NCBI GenBank assembly: GCA_964643545.1
Contig: CAZXTE010000001.1
Span: 19,101-83,100 of the forward strand
Reading direction: 5' to 3'
Source: an uncultured Candidatus Saccharibacteria bacterium
GTDB lineage: Bacteria > Patescibacteriota > Saccharimonadia > Saccharimonadales > AWTP1-31
DNA length: 64,000 nt
Position numbers and translations under genes: made by a program
Notes under the pieces: generated by a model
Databases searched by the model: none
The model's input: only the letters and a program-made list of their open reading frames with translations
What the model was told of the DNA's origin: nothing
Shown: in pieces, positions 23,819 to 58,969 of the stretch
How positions within the stretch are numbered: position 1 is the first letter of the stretch
Layout: each line of letters starts with the position of its first letter

Positions 23819-24232
23819 TTATATATTAAAGGTCTTCTTGGTCTTGTATGGTTCTAGCTCTAACGAGTCCTGAATTTCAGTATATACAAACGGCATCTCT
23901 TCTCGGGCGAGCGCCTGCATTGTTTTATCAATCATTTCGTATAATTTTGACGTTGGCACATCTTTTAGATCTCGTTTTTCAACTTCTTCTAGCAACTTCT
24001 CAAGTCTCTTGCCAAGAACCTTGATTCGATGTTGTTTACCAATCTTGTATTGTTCTTGCAAATTGTCTAAATACAGACCCTGTTGGTTCTGGATCTCATT
24101 TTCATATTGTTTTGCCCAATTAAACAAAGTTGTCTTACTGACGTCGAGTTTCTTTGCAATATTTGCATAGCTTTCATTGCTCGCACGTAACTCAATAAAT
24201 TTCTCATGTTTCTCTGGCTTACTCATCAACAC
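23819..24232 (-). CDS. small helix-turn-helix protein (IS3-OrfA-like or regulator)
   Basis: SYANIAKKLDVSKTTLFNWAKQY is an HTH, followed by a coiled-coil/leucine-zipper-like region. No partner ORF is present. Confidence 0.45.
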   Translation of the reverse strand: MLMSKPEKHEKFIELRASNESYANIAKKLDVSKTTLFNWAKQYENEIQNQQGLYLDNLQEQYKIGKQHRIKVLGKRLEKLLEEVEKRDLKDVPTSKLYEMIDKTMQALAREEMPFVYTEIQDSLELEPYKTKKTFNI

Positions 24233-51819: not shown

Positions 51820-52140
51820 GTGACATTCAACGTATTTGCACAAACACAGCCCCCACCTACTTCACAGGTTGGTGTTTGTACTACAGATTTGTGCAACACA
51901 AATCTGCCCGCAGTGAGTGCAGGAAGCACGCAAGTGACTACGGTTTTGCAGATCTTGTTTGGAGTGGTAGCAGTGCTGGCGCTTATTTATGTCATTTTGG
52001 CAGGTTTGAAGCTCATCACTTCCAGCGGTGATCCTCAGTCAGTAGCAAAAGGACGACAACAGATACTCTTTGCAGTTATTGGCCTGACAGTTGCACTCAG
52101 CGCCGAACTAATCATTTCATTTGTAATCAACAGGCTATAA
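51820..52140 (+). CDS. VirB2/TrbC-like pilin paralog 3
   Basis: 106 aa with a CTTDLC pair and two hydrophobic helices flanking TSSGDPQS. Confidence 0.6.
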   Translation: MTFNVFAQTQPPPTSQVGVCTTDLCNTNLPAVSAGSTQVTTVLQILFGVVAVLALIYVILAGLKLITSSGDPQSVAKGRQQILFAVIGLTVALSAELIISFVINRL

Positions 52141-52142
52141 TC

Positions 52143-52550
52143 ATGAGAAAATTAACACTAGTTATGGCAACCGTACTAGGCAGCATGCTTTTTGCGCTGC
52201 CGAATACAGTATTTGCGGTAGATGTTTTTGGGGGGTCGGACGGTGCTTGTACACAAGCAAATACCACGGGCGAAGTTCCGGAAATATGTAAGGACACCGT
52301 GAACGCAACGGGCGAGAACCCTATAGTAGGGCCGAGTGGTATTGTCACCAAGGGTTTACAAGTACTCGTCATTGTAATCGGCATCATTGCGGTTGTGATG
52401 TTAGTAATCTCTGGGCTACGACTTATTATGTCGGGCGGTGATCCAAAAAATGCGGCCAGCGCACGAGATGGCATACTGTACGCCGGTATTGGTATAGTAG
52501 TAGTAGTGACTGCACAACTGCTGATCAACTTTGTATTAACAAAACTGTAA
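52143..52550 (+). CDS. VirB2/TrbC-like pilin paralog 4
   Basis: 135 aa with a signal peptide, a C..C pair, and helices flanking MSGGDPKN. Confidence 0.65.
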   Translation: MRKLTLVMATVLGSMLFALPNTVFAVDVFGGSDGACTQANTTGEVPEICKDTVNATGENPIVGPSGIVTKGLQVLVIVIGIIAVVMLVISGLRLIMSGGDPKNAASARDGILYAGIGIVVVVTAQLLINFVLTKL

Positions 52551-52558
52551 AGGAAAAA

Positions 52559-52969
52559 ATGAAAAAAATTGCCCGTTTCAGGAAAAACTTGGTAGTAGCA
52601 CTGGCGTCTGTGTTCTTCTTAGTACCGCTCTCGCCTGTTCTGGTGCATGCAGGACCATTCGACAGCGCCAAAGACGCAGCATGTAAGGGTTTAAATTTTG
52701 ACGACCCTACGGCCACGTGTGCTGCAGGCTCTAAGGACGCAGAAACAAATGCCAAGCTAAAGACGGCCGTGAATCTTTTGTCGGCTATTGTGGGTGTAAT
52801 TGCAGTAGTTATGATTATCATTGCAGGCATGAATTTTATAACTGCAGGAGGAGATTCGGGCAAAGTTTCAACTGCCAGGAATATGATTCTGTACGCTGCA
52901 ATTGGTATTGTAGTTGTAGCCCTCGCACAACTGATCGTCCGCTTTGTCTTGCAACGATTCGGGAAGTAG
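52559..52969 (+). CDS. VirB2/TrbC-like pilin paralog 5
   Basis: 136 aa with a signal peptide, a C..C pair, and helices flanking TAGGDSGK. The C-terminus is ALAQLIVRFVLQRFG. Confidence 0.65.
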   Translation: MKKIARFRKNLVVALASVFFLVPLSPVLVHAGPFDSAKDAACKGLNFDDPTATCAAGSKDAETNAKLKTAVNLLSAIVGVIAVVMIIIAGMNFITAGGDSGKVSTARNMILYAAIGIVVVALAQLIVRFVLQRFGK

Positions 52970-53031
52970 CTGTTGTAACTTCCCTCAAAGTTGTGATATA
53001 AACATAAGTAGCAATATAGAAAGGTAAAAGA

Positions 53032-53460
53032 ATGATTAAAAAATTAAAACGTTTAGTAGTTGGCTTCACCGCTTCGGCTGCACTGTTAATGCCTTTGGCT
53101 ATACCTGTGGCTGTTCACGCGCAAACGACTGAAGACATTGGAAAGAACTTTTGTCAGGGGGCAGACATAACACTCGGTACTGGTACGGGTAGCTCTGCAA
53201 CCTGTGATACCAAAGATGCAGAAAGCAAAGTGAATACTACCGTAAAGAACTCGCTCAATCTTTTTTCGGCAATAGTTGGTATTTTGTCTGTAGTCATGAT
53301 CATTATTGGTGGTGTTAAGTACATCACCTCTGGTGGTGAATCTGGCAAGGTTACCTCAGCCAAAGACAGCATTTTGTTTGCGGTCGTCGGATTGATTGTC
53401 GTGGCTCTTGCACAACTGATCGTCCGCTTCGTCTTGCAACGATTCGGTAACCCCACCTAA
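53032..53460 (+). CDS. VirB2/TrbC-like pilin paralog 6
   Basis: 142 aa with a signal peptide, a C..C pair, and helices flanking TSGGESGK. Its 3' 38 nt are near-identical to those of paralog 5 (52925-52962 versus 53410-53447, one mismatch). Confidence 0.65.
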   Translation: MIKKLKRLVVGFTASAALLMPLAIPVAVHAQTTEDIGKNFCQGADITLGTGTGSSATCDTKDAESKVNTTVKNSLNLFSAIVGILSVVMIIIGGVKYITSGGESGKVTSAKDSILFAVVGLIVVALAQLIVRFVLQRFGNPT

Positions 53461-54829: not shown

Positions 54830-54919
<90 letters not shown>

Positions 54920-54940
54920 AGACTAGCTTTTCGTGTTACG

Positions 54941-55033
54941 TGGCGGAGGAGGAGGGATTCGAACCCTCGCGGGAGATTGCTCCCCCCTAACGATTTAGCA
55001 AACCGTCCCCTTCAGCCTCTTGGGTACTCCTCC
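54941..55033 (-). tRNA. tRNA-Ser (anticodon GCU), type II
   Basis: Minus-strand read: GGAGGAG acceptor, anticodon arm ACGGT-TTGCTAA-ATCGT, long variable arm, GAGGGTTCGAATCCCTC T-arm, and CCA. Confidence 0.85.
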
Positions 55034-55118
55034 GTAACAGGTTGCAATTATAGCAACTTCCCTGTTATTCATAAAGAACAGTTTTAGTAATTTGTTGTAA
55101 ATACGGTACAATACGCTT

Positions 55119-55691
55119 ATGCAAGAGGGTCAACAAAGTCAGACGGTGGCGCCTGTGCCGCAACAAACTGCACCGCAGTCGAGCTGGCAATTCACGAATA
55201 ACGAGCCGGCCCTACCTCAAACTTCAAAAGACATAAACCCCATACAATGGTCTGCCTCTGAGTTTATACGTCACGATAAAGGGATTGGCTGGTATCTTGC
55301 ACTTATGGGTGCTTCTTTGCTCGTAGCAGCGGGCATCTACTTAATAACACGCGACAAAATAACTGCCGCAACCATTATTGTTGCTACGATTCTACTAGGT
55401 GTTGTCGCTGCGCGAAAACCCCGAGAATTACAGTATGGAGTGGATGAGCACGGCGTACAGATTGGCAAGAAGCTTTACCCGTACACGAGCTTTAAGTCGT
55501 TTTCTATTATGCAAGAGGGTGGGATTGAATCTATTTGGTTTATGCCCATGCAACGATTTATGCCCGGGCTTAGTATCTACTTTGCGCCCGAAGATGGGCC
55601 GAAGATTGTTGATGCACTTTCACAGTTCTTGCCTGCCGAGACTCGCTCGCTTGATCCTGTTGACAAATTCATGCATCGCATCCGCTTCTAG
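55119..55691 (+). CDS. hypothetical membrane protein (2 TM)
   Basis: Gln/Pro-rich N-terminus, then two adjacent TM helices (WYLALMGASLLVAAGIYLI; AATIIVATILLGVVAA). Confidence 0.5.
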   Translation: MQEGQQSQTVAPVPQQTAPQSSWQFTNNEPALPQTSKDINPIQWSASEFIRHDKGIGWYLALMGASLLVAAGIYLITRDKITAATIIVATILLGVVAARKPRELQYGVDEHGVQIGKKLYPYTSFKSFSIMQEGGIESIWFMPMQRFMPGLSIYFAPEDGPKIVDALSQFLPAETRSLDPVDKFMHRIRF

Positions 55692-55740
55692 CTAGCAATA
55701 ACAGATACGCTGTGCTAGAATTACCCCTGTTCATCATTGA

Positions 55741-55817
55741 GCACCCGTAGCTCAGCTGGATAGAGCGTTGGCTTGCGGAGCCAAAGGTCGTAGGTTCGAA
55801 TCCTGTCGGGTGTACCA
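55741..55817 (+). tRNA. tRNA-Arg (anticodon read as GCG), 77 nt with encoded CCA
   Basis: GCACCCG acceptor, GCTCAGCTGGATAGAGC D-arm (Arg-like, A20), anticodon arm TTGGC-TTGCGGA-GCCAA, GTAGGTTCGAATCCTGT T-arm, and CGGGTGT-A-CCA. It is closely similar to E. coli tRNA-Arg(ACG) outside the anticodon. Confidence 0.8.
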
Positions 55818-55824
55818 ATGAAAG

Positions 55825-55849
55825 GGCCGGTCGAAAGACCGGTTTTTTC
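55825..55849 (+). terminator. rho-independent terminator after tRNA-Arg
   Basis: GGCCGGTC-gaaa-GACCGG followed by TTTTTT. Confidence 0.6.
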
Positions 55850-55894
55850 ATTTGTTATGTCTGTGAGCTCGGACCTACGACCCGAGCTTTGCTC

Positions 55895-55921
55895 GGCAGT
55901 CTTCGAATCCTGTCGGGTATA
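55895..55921 (+). repeat. duplicated tRNA-Arg 3'-end fragment (17/17 nt identical to 55795-55811; att-site-like scar)
   Basis: TTCGAATCCTGTCGGGT occurs both in the tRNA T-arm/acceptor region and again about 85 bp downstream. It is preceded there by a GAGCTCGG...CCGAGC hairpin. Confidence 0.7.
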
Positions 55922-56276
55922 CTGCTTGGCGTTCAGCTTGAATGCACAAGGCGCAGCATCTGTCTGCTTGTGGCAAGAACGGGGTTTGGCGGCCGCAGTT
56001 GGTAGACTGGAGCAAAGTACTCATCGTGTAACCGAGCAGCTTTGGCTGGTGGTGCATCTGGGTGTGGCACGCGCGGCTCAAAATCTCCCGCCAAACCATC
56101 ATCACCAAATAGCTCTTCTACGGTTGATATGCCCCCAAGGAACTCTGCAAACTGTTGTATGCGATGTTCGTTTGGTTTTGGTGCTTCTGGGTTATCTATT
56201 TGTTCCATGGCTGTAGTCTAGATTCGTTTGTGTGTACAATCTAGTTAGTACATTTTGTGTCAAAAAAATTAGACCT

Positions 56277-56945
56277 ATGCTTACACATAATATCCAGAGA
56301 AAAATTATTCGCGGGCTTGCACTCCATAAATCCTTGTCTTTTGCTGAGCTTCGTCCCGCCGGCACAGAGAGTAATGTATTTACGTATCATTTGAATACGC
56401 TTATAAAAGAGGGCTATGTAGATAAGGTTGGCAAAGGAAATTACGAACTCACTGCTCTTGGCAAGATGCTTGGTATAAATTCTCATCTGACACCGAAAGA
56501 ATGGTTATCGCAGGCGCATGCAGTAGTGTTCGTGACGGTGTTTGACCCCAAAAAAGGATGGTTGGTGCGACGGCGTAAAGCGCAGCCAATGTACGACTAT
56601 GTGGGCTTTTTGCACTTTGAACCAGTTGCAGCAGTGCCTATGTTGGAGACCGCTCAAAACATAGTGAATGATAAAGTCGGCATTCACGCGGTTTTTGAAC
56701 CAAGAGGTTTTGGCTATGCGCGCTTTTTTAAAGATGGTGATCTACAGAGCTTTACGACCTACACCATTGTTGGTGCTACATCGTTCGAGGGAGACATAAC
56801 GAAGCAGACCGAAACTGGCGAGAGTTATTGGGCCAGCTATGATGAGATAAAGAAAGAGAAATTATTGCTCCCAACGATGCTTCCTATTATGGATAACCTT
56901 CTCAAGGAAAAGCTGTTCTTTTTAGATATGAATTTTGAAGTTTAG
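56277..56945 (+). CDS. winged-helix DNA-binding protein with C-terminal uncharacterized (Nudix-like?) domain
   Basis: N-terminal wHTH (IQRKIIRGLALHKSLSFAELRP...NVFTYHLNTLIKEGYVDK). The start is placed at the ATG at 56277. Confidence 0.5.
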   Translation: MLTHNIQRKIIRGLALHKSLSFAELRPAGTESNVFTYHLNTLIKEGYVDKVGKGNYELTALGKMLGINSHLTPKEWLSQAHAVVFVTVFDPKKGWLVRRRKAQPMYDYVGFLHFEPVAAVPMLETAQNIVNDKVGIHAVFEPRGFGYARFFKDGDLQSFTTYTIVGATSFEGDITKQTETGESYWASYDEIKKEKLLLPTMLPIMDNLLKEKLFFLDMNFEV

Positions 56946-57020: not shown

Positions 57021-57755
57021 ATGAAAGTATGCTATTGGAATGTCTGCAATGAGACTTCGCCAGAAGATATTGCTGCACACTGTAGTGATATGCCCGGTGT
57101 TGACGTATTCTGCCTACAAGAAGTGCCATATGCACAACATGGGTATACAAGGTTGCCTGCAACAAGGCTTTTGGCTCGTGAGCTGGGCATGGACGGGGTA
57201 TTCCAGCATACCCGCACGTTAAGAAGATCACCGGGCAAATATAAGGCGTATGGTACCGCTATCCTTAGTAAGTCCACAATTATCGGCTCAAGAACCGCTG
57301 TGCTCAGAGATGACATCTTTGCATATATGACTCCCGGCGCACAAAATCAACGCATTGCACTGTCTGCAGCAACTGAAGCTGAACCTGGTGTAACTGTTGC
57401 TGTGGCTCACCTTTCCTATCGCCTACCGCTTGGTCTGGGCAGCGTTGGGCTTTTAGAAGAACGTCGCGTACTTCAAAGACAACTTTCCACAATGCGCGAC
57501 ACTTCAGAAGTGATCTTTGGTGGCGATATGAATGCTGAACCGGGTGGGGGCTTAGATGCTATGATTGGCGAGCTTGGTCTGTCGAGAGTGCCTACCGATG
57601 GTGCTACATTTCGTTCTCGGCATTGGTTTGCTGGCCATGCGACGCGGGAACTAGACAGGGCATTTGTTACACAGGGCTTGGTTGCAACTGCTGAACTGGG
57701 TGCGTTTGGCGCATCTGACCACCGTCCTGTGATTGTGGATGTTCACACCAGATGA
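57021..57755 (+). CDS. endonuclease/exonuclease/phosphatase (EEP) family protein
   Basis: MKVCYWNV start typical of EEP, with CLQEV, GGDMNAEP and SDHRPV motifs. The track ORF begins at a TTG at 56967. Confidence 0.7.
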   Translation: MKVCYWNVCNETSPEDIAAHCSDMPGVDVFCLQEVPYAQHGYTRLPATRLLARELGMDGVFQHTRTLRRSPGKYKAYGTAILSKSTIIGSRTAVLRDDIFAYMTPGAQNQRIALSAATEAEPGVTVAVAHLSYRLPLGLGSVGLLEERRVLQRQLSTMRDTSEVIFGGDMNAEPGGGLDAMIGELGLSRVPTDGATFRSRHWFAGHATRELDRAFVTQGLVATAELGAFGASDHRPVIVDVHTR

Positions 57756-58124: not shown

Positions 58125-58700
58125 ATGATGAGTAAAAGCCAAAAGAAGTTATATGGCGTGATCCTATTCGGGGCACTTGTTGGTTTTATTGCTTCTTTTT
58201 GGCAACTACTCGAAAAACTAACATTGCTAAAAAACAGTGCTGCTCCCTTAAGTTGTAATCTGAACACCGTCTTTAGTTGCACGAATGTATTGAATGCTCC
58301 TCAGAGCTCAGTGTTTGGCTTCCCGAACTCGCTACTGTGCATTATTTTATTCACCATTGCCATTGTTGCAGCTATAGTTGGATTAACGGGTACAAAAATA
58401 GCTCGTGGGGTGCGTTTTTCGTTTCAATTCCTAGCTCTCTTTACCGTATTCTTTGGCCTTTGGTACCTATGGCAGAGCATATTTAATCTAGGGGCAATGT
58501 GTATTTTCTGTGTTTTTTGTTTCGGGGGCGTGCTAACGATAAATGCCGCTTGGTTCAGGCTGAATTATTCGGATTACCCGATTTCAAAGTCACTTAAGCG
58601 AAAGATCGATGTAGCGGTCGCTAACGGCGCCGATATTTTCTTCTGGTGCCTCATCGGCTTGATTGTTGTAGCAGAAGCAGTTATCAAATTCACTCGCTAG
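58125..58700 (+). CDS. vitamin K epoxide reductase (VKOR) family thiol-disulfide oxidoreductase
   Basis: Four or five TM helices with the active-site CxxC arrangement (C...CNLNTVFSC). The start is placed at MMSKSQKK. Confidence 0.65.
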   Translation: MMSKSQKKLYGVILFGALVGFIASFWQLLEKLTLLKNSAAPLSCNLNTVFSCTNVLNAPQSSVFGFPNSLLCIILFTIAIVAAIVGLTGTKIARGVRFSFQFLALFTVFFGLWYLWQSIFNLGAMCIFCVFCFGGVLTINAAWFRLNYSDYPISKSLKRKIDVAVANGADIFFWCLIGLIVVAEAVIKFTR

Positions 58701-58969
58701 ATACGGCGTTGCGAGCGGTTCACTTTGGGGGAGATGGAGACCTTCTCTATTTGTTCTTGCCTATGCTTGCAAAAACGCACGCAACCGATAATAGTATCTG
58801 CAGATGAAGTTATTTTTCTTGGGGGTATTATTTTTGGCTATACCGTACGTACTGCTGAACTCATTCGTAATGCCGCAGCTTCGGGGTCTTGAGAAAATGT
58901 ACAGCAATGCTGACGTAATTGCCGAGAATGTGGCCAAAGGAAAGCCGGTAAGCCCAGAGACAAACGGGG

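Follow-up and report, generated by a model that had tools for sequence, protein, structure and literature searches.

A folded tRNA-end module behind tRNA-Arg in a Saccharibacteria genome, a candidate pseudo-attachment site without an integrase

The tRNA-Arg(GCG) gene of the window, by which we mean the whole 64-kb stretch of DNA analysed here, is followed by a module of ~105 nt, in which a terminator precedes a decayed copy of the tRNA end in inverted orientation, a small hairpin and then a copy of this end in direct orientation. Modules of this kind form a family whose members track the neighbouring tRNA, and the site is polymorphic among closely related strains and has received insertions of gene cargo in some of them. 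With its inverted arm and a conserved structured family behind different tRNA genes, the feature is more than the scar of an integration event. Our preferred reading, which we hold tentatively as possible and somewhat short of probable, is that the window contains a cargo-less copy of an integrase-less module that is acted on in trans and serves as a pseudo-attachment site.

The repeated 3' end of tRNA-Arg

The tRNA-Arg gene (anticodon GCG, CCA encoded) lies at 55741-55817 on the plus strand and was called by ARAGORN and by the Rfam tRNA model (67.1 bits). An earlier note on this DNA had reported that the last part of the gene recurs behind it, and an exact search of the 64 kb confirmed that the repeated tail is real. 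The 17-mer TTCGAATCCTGTCGGGT occurs exactly twice, at 55795-55811 and at 55902-55918, where 0.11 matches are expected by chance. The repeat lengthens to 21 nt with identity at 20 of 21 positions: copy 1 (D1, 55795-55815, plus strand) runs inside the tRNA from the T-loop to the discriminator and the first C of CCA, and copy 2 (D2, TTCGAATCCTGTCGGGTATAC, 55902-55922, plus strand) is without the CCA and carries one substitution relative to the tRNA. An intact tRNA gene with a direct repeat of its 3' fragment, one mark of a tRNA island, is thereby present.

The two copies are separated by 86 gene-free nucleotides, which contain the terminator (55817-55852) and the second hairpin that had been described earlier. 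A third copy of the 17-mer, which had been proposed as a downstream check, is absent from the 64-kb window even when up to three mismatches are allowed. In all sister strains the 17-mer of D2 is unchanged. Neither ARAGORN nor the Rfam tRNA model detects a cloverleaf across 55853-55924, and the four tRNAs called in the window all lie elsewhere.

The tRNA for CGN arginine codons has the anticodon GCG both in the window (CTTGCGGAG loop) and in most of the sampled Saccharibacteria-type loci (L129-L248). In most bacteria, the corresponding tRNA-Arg has the anticodon ACG, which is deaminated to ICG.

Anatomy of the module

The module starts with an intrinsic terminator (55817-55852, plus strand), a 16-pair stem that includes the last A of the tRNA (55817) and is followed by a T-run. 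A terminator of the same type is found behind tRNA-Arg in related loci with or without modules. Next comes a reverse-complement arm (I, 55853-55882, plus strand), which repeats the last ~32 nt of the tRNA in inverted and decayed form and which the earlier note had overlooked. In an alignment with the reverse-complemented 3'-terminal 32 nt of the tRNA, arm I scores 27 (best of 200 shuffles, 26), and it faces the tRNA end with 21 Watson-Crick, five G.U, one A.C and three other positions, so that its mismatches are mostly G.U-compatible. The segment 55869-55882 is complementary to 55786-55799 of the tRNA at 13 of 14 positions. The 3' third of the tRNA, the terminator and arm I could together form a giant hairpin (55786-55882, plus strand), and the predicted fold of 55780-55924 reaches -67.6 kcal/mol (z = -7.0), a stability that none of 200 shuffles equalled.

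Arm I is followed by a small apical hairpin (CCGAGC-TTT-GCTCGG, 55882-55896, plus strand), which is retained in sister strains; CTGGCGC-GAT-GCGCCAG stands in its place in L239. With regard to a transposon or MITE, the ends of the module are inverted copies of each other, but both are copies of the tRNA, and no target-site duplication is definable. This arrangement, referred to as the short form, is present in the window behind tRNA-Arg only; the other tRNAs of the window, three tRNA-Ser genes, have no module.

A family of modules behind several tRNA genes

The occurrence of the module was followed in 125 tRNA-Arg loci, namely 120 from a metagenome scan for the 3' part of tRNA-Arg and five added loci (the window, L001 and L006-L008) that already carried the pattern. 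A second copy of the 3' end lies 81-204 nt downstream of the gene in 14 of these 125 loci, and none of them has a more distant copy in a flank of up to 10 kb. With decayed examples included, modules are present in roughly 15% of the sampled loci. The downstream copy always bears the variants of the resident tRNA (TGTC or TGCC; GTAC, ACAC or GCAC), and the order D1, terminator, I, hairpin, D2 is common to all modules. Mispairs in the antisense arms are biased, with 55 G.U against 11 A.C.

The majority of the modules are of a long form, in which D2 is interrupted at T-loop position 57/58 by a conserved insert of ~65 nt that comprises two hairpins (H3 and H4), and a second terminator then follows. 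The structure of the H3/H4 core was defined by hand and then tested separately. In this test, 77% of cells are paired, compared to 58% after shuffling and 30-38% with partners slid, changes on both sides are seen in 17 of 19 pairs, and the covariation score of 0.487 (vs 0.18) was reached by none of 500 shuffles. RNAalifold applied to the raw MAFFT alignment recovers the apical helix only. The loops of the core are of the GNRA or G[CUUG]C type on the tRNA strand. The G.U excess, the loop types and the covariation together argue that the plus strand is under folding constraint.

A profile of the H3/H4 core gave 28 matches in the collected loci, and modules are found 75-110 nt behind tRNA-Ser(cga), tRNA-Ser(tga), tRNA-Lys(ctt) and tRNA-Arg(gcg). 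Such modules terminate in the 3' end of the neighbouring tRNA, species-specific variants included, with exceptions in L222 and L132. A module behind tRNA-Arg in L222 has a tRNA-Ser tail, and in L132 the module that matches the tRNA in front of it is succeeded, behind each tRNA, by a second module of the other type. Tandem and truncated modules occur also in L136 and L006. Within one genome, the cores of Arg and Ser modules have an identity of 0.68-0.90, compared to a between-genome mean of 0.52. This higher identity within genomes points to intragenomic copying of the modules, or to their homogenisation inside genomes, rather than to separate inheritance with each tRNA.

No description of this module was found in the literature. 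Four scans of IMG/VR returned only other tRNAs or a chance match inside a terminase gene, and a viral origin is rejected on that ground. Similarly, phage and plasmid collections gave no blastn match to a long-form module.

Polymorphism and cargo in related strains

Among species representatives, the one closest to the window is a Candidatus Saccharibacteria MAG, and the species-representative contig L005 terminates within the T-loop. Another contig, L001, is identical to the window (100%) over the 692 nt up to 55797 and is divergent from the T-loop on; its allele has a long-form module in place of the short form of the window. The sequence upstream of the 190-aa gene in L001 (1-127) is also unlike the window, and it holds another GGTCGTAGGT fragment, which corresponds to the 5' strand of the tRNA-Arg T-arm.

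The arrangement of the window recurs in L253 and L261, and their D2 17-mer is constant despite a synonymous divergence of 0.17-0.19. The centre of the antisense arm is altered at 13-23% of positions in these two loci and, in the short forms of sister strains, changes at about the neutral rate; the copy in the window may thus be decaying.

In L257, by contrast with the gene-free spacer of the window, ~3 kb of cargo with three genes (327, 261 and 247 aa) is found. To its left lie the tRNA, the terminator, a module A and a perfect D2 (...GGGTGTACCA), and to its right GTGTACCA, a terminator, an internally deleted module B, CTTGG and ORF91, an open reading frame described below. The cargo is bounded by 9-nt GGTGTACCA repeats and by ~54-nt repeats that comprise the tRNA end, the terminator and the start of the module. 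This layout rests on a single metagenome contig across the ~54-nt repeat, and three more contigs of the L257 type break within that repeat. L003 contains a different cargo with a DUF2000 gene and a right-hand junction as in L257, that is, TGTACCA followed by the terminator. In both loci, the cargo is inserted at the ACCA end of a tRNA-like copy. One cargo protein is methyltransferase-like and has a mad2-like PADLOC match. The motif GTAC|TGCTTGG, which lies 3' of copy 2 in the window (55919-55945), recurs at 560-580 of L003, ~150 nt upstream of the TGTACCA-terminator junction, which suggests another remnant unit there.

As to variable cargo between the repeats, a further mark of tRNA islands, the picture is mixed: 86 nt without a gene in the window and a like state in L253 and L261, ~3 kb in L257 and the DUF2000 gene in L003, the last two being the only cargo-bearing examples found. 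The earlier note had advised a check of whether 55.8-58.7 kb is variably present in related genomes. L001, L257 and L003 differ at this point, and the downstream block is syntenic in the sister strains apart from single-gene indels. These sequence comparisons support the view that close relatives have a recombination hot spot here.

Genes around the module

The stretch behind copy 2 is, as had been stated, somewhat GC-richer than its flanks (0.52 vs 0.42-0.47 on either side). It contains ORF91 (55933-56208, minus strand), a 91-aa orphan gene that lies outside the module and is divergent from the wHTH gene (56277-56945). This ORF had been considered doubtful. Five strains, which differ by a synonymous divergence of 0.06-0.19, were compared, and each of the ten comparisons gives it a pN/pS within 0.10-0.23, similar to the 0.03-0.07 of the wHTH gene. 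These values rule out a spurious ORF, and on this measure ORF91 is a real gene under purifying selection. It forms one cluster among 5.8 billion proteins, has no Pfam and no PADLOC match, and is conserved in position in sister strains.

Downstream, the order ORF91, wHTH, DUF378, VKOR, L,D-transpeptidase, PurF and tRNA-Ser(cga) is found in every sister strain, and the differences within this block among sister strains are single-gene indels only. The wHTH, EEP, DUF378 and VKOR genes, in which the real cargo had been suspected, are therefore ruled out as such: they are conserved neighbours in a block that is syntenic in all sister strains, and no third repeat is present.

The endonuclease/exonuclease/phosphatase gene at 57021-57755 is present in the window and in L257-L260, whereas in L253-L256 and L261 it is cleanly missing from its place between wHTH and DUF378. 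A 100-aa NTP_transf_9 (PF04248) gene lies between VKOR and a 65-aa ORF in every sister contig that covers the interval. At this place the window has ~100 nt (58700-58804), and it appears from this comparison to have lost the gene.

Genera differ in how tRNA-Ser(tga), tRNA-Ser(gct), the 190-aa gene and tRNA-Arg are ordered and oriented (window 54830-55817 vs L006-L008), and the breakpoints of the tRNA order fall at tRNA genes and modules. In L006, tRNA-Arg and tRNA-Ser(cga) are ~1.2 kb from each other and enclose tRNA-Ser(gct) and the 190-aa gene; in the window, ~6.3 kb of other genes (ORF91 to PurF) separate the two tRNAs. Four tandem small paralogous genes at 51820-53460 correspond to T4SS_pilin (PF18895) genes of sister loci. 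They mark the margin of a large type IV secretion cluster that directly adjoins the tRNA cluster, and L006, L239, L253 and L257 show this adjacency too.

Search for a recombinase

No catalytic domain of an integrase, resolvase or transposase was found in the 35 Pfam-scanned ORFs of the window, and Pfam detected no integrase or transposase domain in the four cargo proteins of L257 and L003. Around the modules of nine loci, ORF translations within 4.5 kb on either side were judged by inspection, and no integrase was seen. The genes there look chromosomal (aminoacyl-tRNA synthetase, HIT, ComF, Hsp20, T4SS pilins and YihY-like), the names ComF, Hsp20 and pilin being in agreement with precomputed Pfam matches on sister loci. 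The third mark of a tRNA island, an integrase next to the tRNA, is thus lacking in the window ORFs, in the L257 and L003 cargo and, by inspection, at the nine module loci, and the nearby tyrosine integrase for which the earlier note had advised a search did not emerge. A DEDD recombinase of the IS110 type is absent among the Pfam-scanned window ORFs, and none is evident around the modules by inspection. PADLOC, run on the four cargo proteins and on the wHTH, EEP and ORF91 proteins of the window, gave the mad2-like methyltransferase match only.

The sole transposase-like signal lies 32 kb from the module. It is a 137-aa protein with an IS3-type transposase HTH (HTH_Tnp_1, E = 1.7e-5), encoded at 23819-24232 on the minus strand among cell-envelope polysaccharide genes, and no catalytic transposase domain was found in the scanned ORFs that neighbour it.

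How the module may act

The module joins the terminator of the tRNA to an antisense arm from its last ~30 nt, a small hairpin and a sense arm from its 3' end. In our preferred reading, the sense copy would be a spare tRNA end that acts as a pseudo-attachment site. Gene cassettes without an integrase would enter at the ACCA end of the tRNA-like copy, the insert in L257 being bounded by GGTGTACCA, and cassettes and whole modules would be gained or lost when the repeated units, each made up of tRNA end, terminator and module, recombine. The window would then represent the collapsed, empty state. The recombinase would be encoded elsewhere and act in trans. Either as RNA or as single-stranded DNA, the plus strand would adopt a fold in which the antisense arm pairs with a tRNA-like arm, and this folded form would probably be what is recognised.

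This reading is supported by the direct repeat and the inverted arm, which are non-random, by the match of the copies to the resident tRNA and the core shared by Arg, Ser and Lys modules, by the polymorphism of L001, L257 and L003 together with the contigs that end inside the repeat, and by the excess of G.U over A.C (55 vs 11) and the predicted giant hairpin (z = -7.0). It is weakened because no recombinase was found in the scanned window ORFs and cargo or, by inspection, around the modules, and because there are two cargo cases, of which L257 depends on one contig across a ~54-nt repeat. It is also weakened because the compensatory changes and the GNRA and CUUG-type loops fit a functional RNA at least equally well, because the centre of the antisense arm changes near-neutrally in short forms, and because no similar sequence was found in IMG/VR, phage and plasmid collections.

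Comparison with known systems

tRNA 3' ends are classic docking sites for mobile DNA. Passages of the Islander catalogue paper describe tyrosine-integrase islands in tRNA genes as a regenerated tRNA with a displaced 3' fragment (PMC4383910). The module resembles such islands in its intact tRNA, in a direct repeat of the 3' part that starts in the T-loop and in a content that varies among close strains. Unlike them, it is without an integrase, has 86 nt between the repeats and includes an inverted copy of the tRNA end, and the borders of the L257 cargo are formed by 9-nt repeats at the very ACCA end and not by a T-loop block.

The CIMEs of Streptococcus are cis-mobilisable, integrase-less units between att repeats that accrete in tandem at one att site. 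By analogy, the modules would share with them the integrase-less repeat-bounded units, the tandem arrangement at a tRNA-type site and the gain and loss by recombination between repeats. However, the module units are 100-190 nt of structured non-coding DNA and not kilobase remnants, and they stand behind several tRNA species with arms that match. Of the known systems, the closest in operation would be att sites of tRNA genes at which integrase-less units accrete in tandem, an analogy that fails in the point of the integrase.

Folded single-stranded recombination sites are known from integron attC and CTX-phi attP, and arrays of such sites may lack a recombinase gene. Integron cassette arrays are marked by attC core sites (R/L boxes, GTTRRRY) and an IntI integrase, and no integrase was found in the scanned window ORFs and cargo. 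The imperfect inverted repeat of the module could similarly fold on one strand into a duplex that mimics a recombination target; unlike in attC and CTX-phi, this duplex would mimic the 3' third of a tRNA gene, and a single strand would be the substrate only by inference. The bridge RNA of the IS110 family is a structured RNA of ~150-180 nt with segments that match the target halves over 4-9 nt, and a DEDD recombinase is encoded adjacent to it. The module has, in analogy, one antisense and one sense segment to adjacent target halves. Unlike the IS110 system, it has no DEDD recombinase nearby, its matching segments are 11-30 nt long and its tRNA target is uninterrupted.

A further likeness is to Rfam LOOT RNA (RF03000), which also has a helix over the tRNA 3' part, a long terminator-like hairpin and two GNRA-capped hairpins. 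The best LOOT score was 28.9 bits, in L186 only, below the gathering threshold of 46.4, and no match was obtained in the window or in nine other module loci; unlike the modules, LOOT lacks the H3/H4 core. At gathering and relaxed thresholds, Rfam gave tRNAs only, plus this one sub-threshold LOOT match.

Alternative explanations

The main alternative, which we consider somewhat unlikely, takes the module for a structured non-coding RNA that arises when transcription reads through the tRNA terminator, and the polymorphism among strains for a side effect of its repeats. Its antisense arm would pair alternatively with the 3' third of the tRNA or with the downstream copy, and its role would be in quality control or processing of tRNA 3' ends, or as a mimic of a tRNA end. 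An RNA would account for the covarying H3/H4 core (77% vs 58% paired, 17 of 19 pairs, none of 500 shuffles), for the GNRA and G[CUUG]C loops on the tRNA strand and for the 55 G.U against 11 A.C in the antisense arms. It would also fit the terminator in which long forms end behind the copy, the better predicted fold of the window module on the plus strand (z = -2.4, vs -0.7 on the minus strand) and the sub-threshold likeness of L186 to LOOT RNA over the tRNA end, the terminator and two hairpins. However, a strong terminator precedes the module and no promoter-like site lies between the two in the window, L136 or L006, and the short form of the window has no terminator behind copy 2. The antisense arm drifts at about the neutral rate, the short forms of two sister strains fold no better than shuffles, and no Rfam family was matched at threshold. 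An RNA alone also leaves the cargo at the ACCA end and the alleles that switch at the T-loop unexplained.

A bolder reading, which we regard as decidedly unlikely, is that the modules are retargetable miniature elements of a previously undescribed class, with a conserved two-hairpin core and with antisense and sense arms taken from the local tRNA, in which the folded mimic would guide the site-specific insertion of cassettes without an integrase at tRNA ends. The fold may then be an RNA or single-stranded DNA mimic of the 3' third of the tRNA gene.

The scar proposed in the earlier note would be the result of one tyrosine-integrase event, with an element that has decayed to 85 nt and with copy 2 as the displaced original 3' end; we give it a very low probability. 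Where a tRNA target has been regenerated and its own fragment displaced, a direct repeat that starts in the T-loop is the classical sign (PMC4383910), copy 2 is without the CCA and has one substitution, and the content of sister strains is variable. Yet no integrase is found in the scanned window ORFs or the cargo, the inverted arm is left unexplained, and many genomes show the same architecture, with a conserved covarying core, behind tRNAs for Arg, Ser and Lys. Moreover, the 17-mer of copy 2 is invariant at a synonymous divergence of 0.06-0.19, where a neutral scar would vary. Three points argue strongly against a simple scar, namely that no integrase was found in the sequences searched, that an inverted arm is present, and that a conserved structured family has been adapted to several tRNAs. 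What survives of that proposal is a tRNA-end repeat starting in the T-loop and a site of recombination, and what falls is the integrase, the third copy and the downstream cargo.

It is also most improbable that the module is a functionless by-product, formed when quasipalindrome template switching in replication extended the terminator hairpin into an inverted and then a direct copy, with gene conversion by the tRNA holding copy 2 identical: the terminator hairpin already pairs with ACCA and the antisense arm begins right behind it and prolongs its stem, the arms always match the local tRNA type (Ser and Lys included) as in-situ copying predicts, and the antisense arm of the short form drifts, but the covarying, homologous ~65-nt core that different genomes and tRNA types share, the 5:1 surplus of G.U relative to A.C and the cargo at ACCA are unexplained. 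The scar and the by-product each account for part of the data.

Implications

The docking-site repeats described here belong to a folded module that is conserved, that holds the tRNA end in both sense and antisense orientation, and around which no integrase was found. The module has been re-fitted to at least three tRNA species and marks differences in gene content between sister strains, and under either reading, recombination site or RNA, it accounts for the assembly breaks at this tRNA cluster. If the module is an RNA, it would represent a new tRNA-linked RNA class. If it directs recombination, it would show how ultra-small host-dependent bacteria swap gene cassettes without carrying integrases, and if the modules are indeed retargetable elements, a bacterial lineage with tiny genomes would possess a landing-pad system that is specified by nucleic acid.
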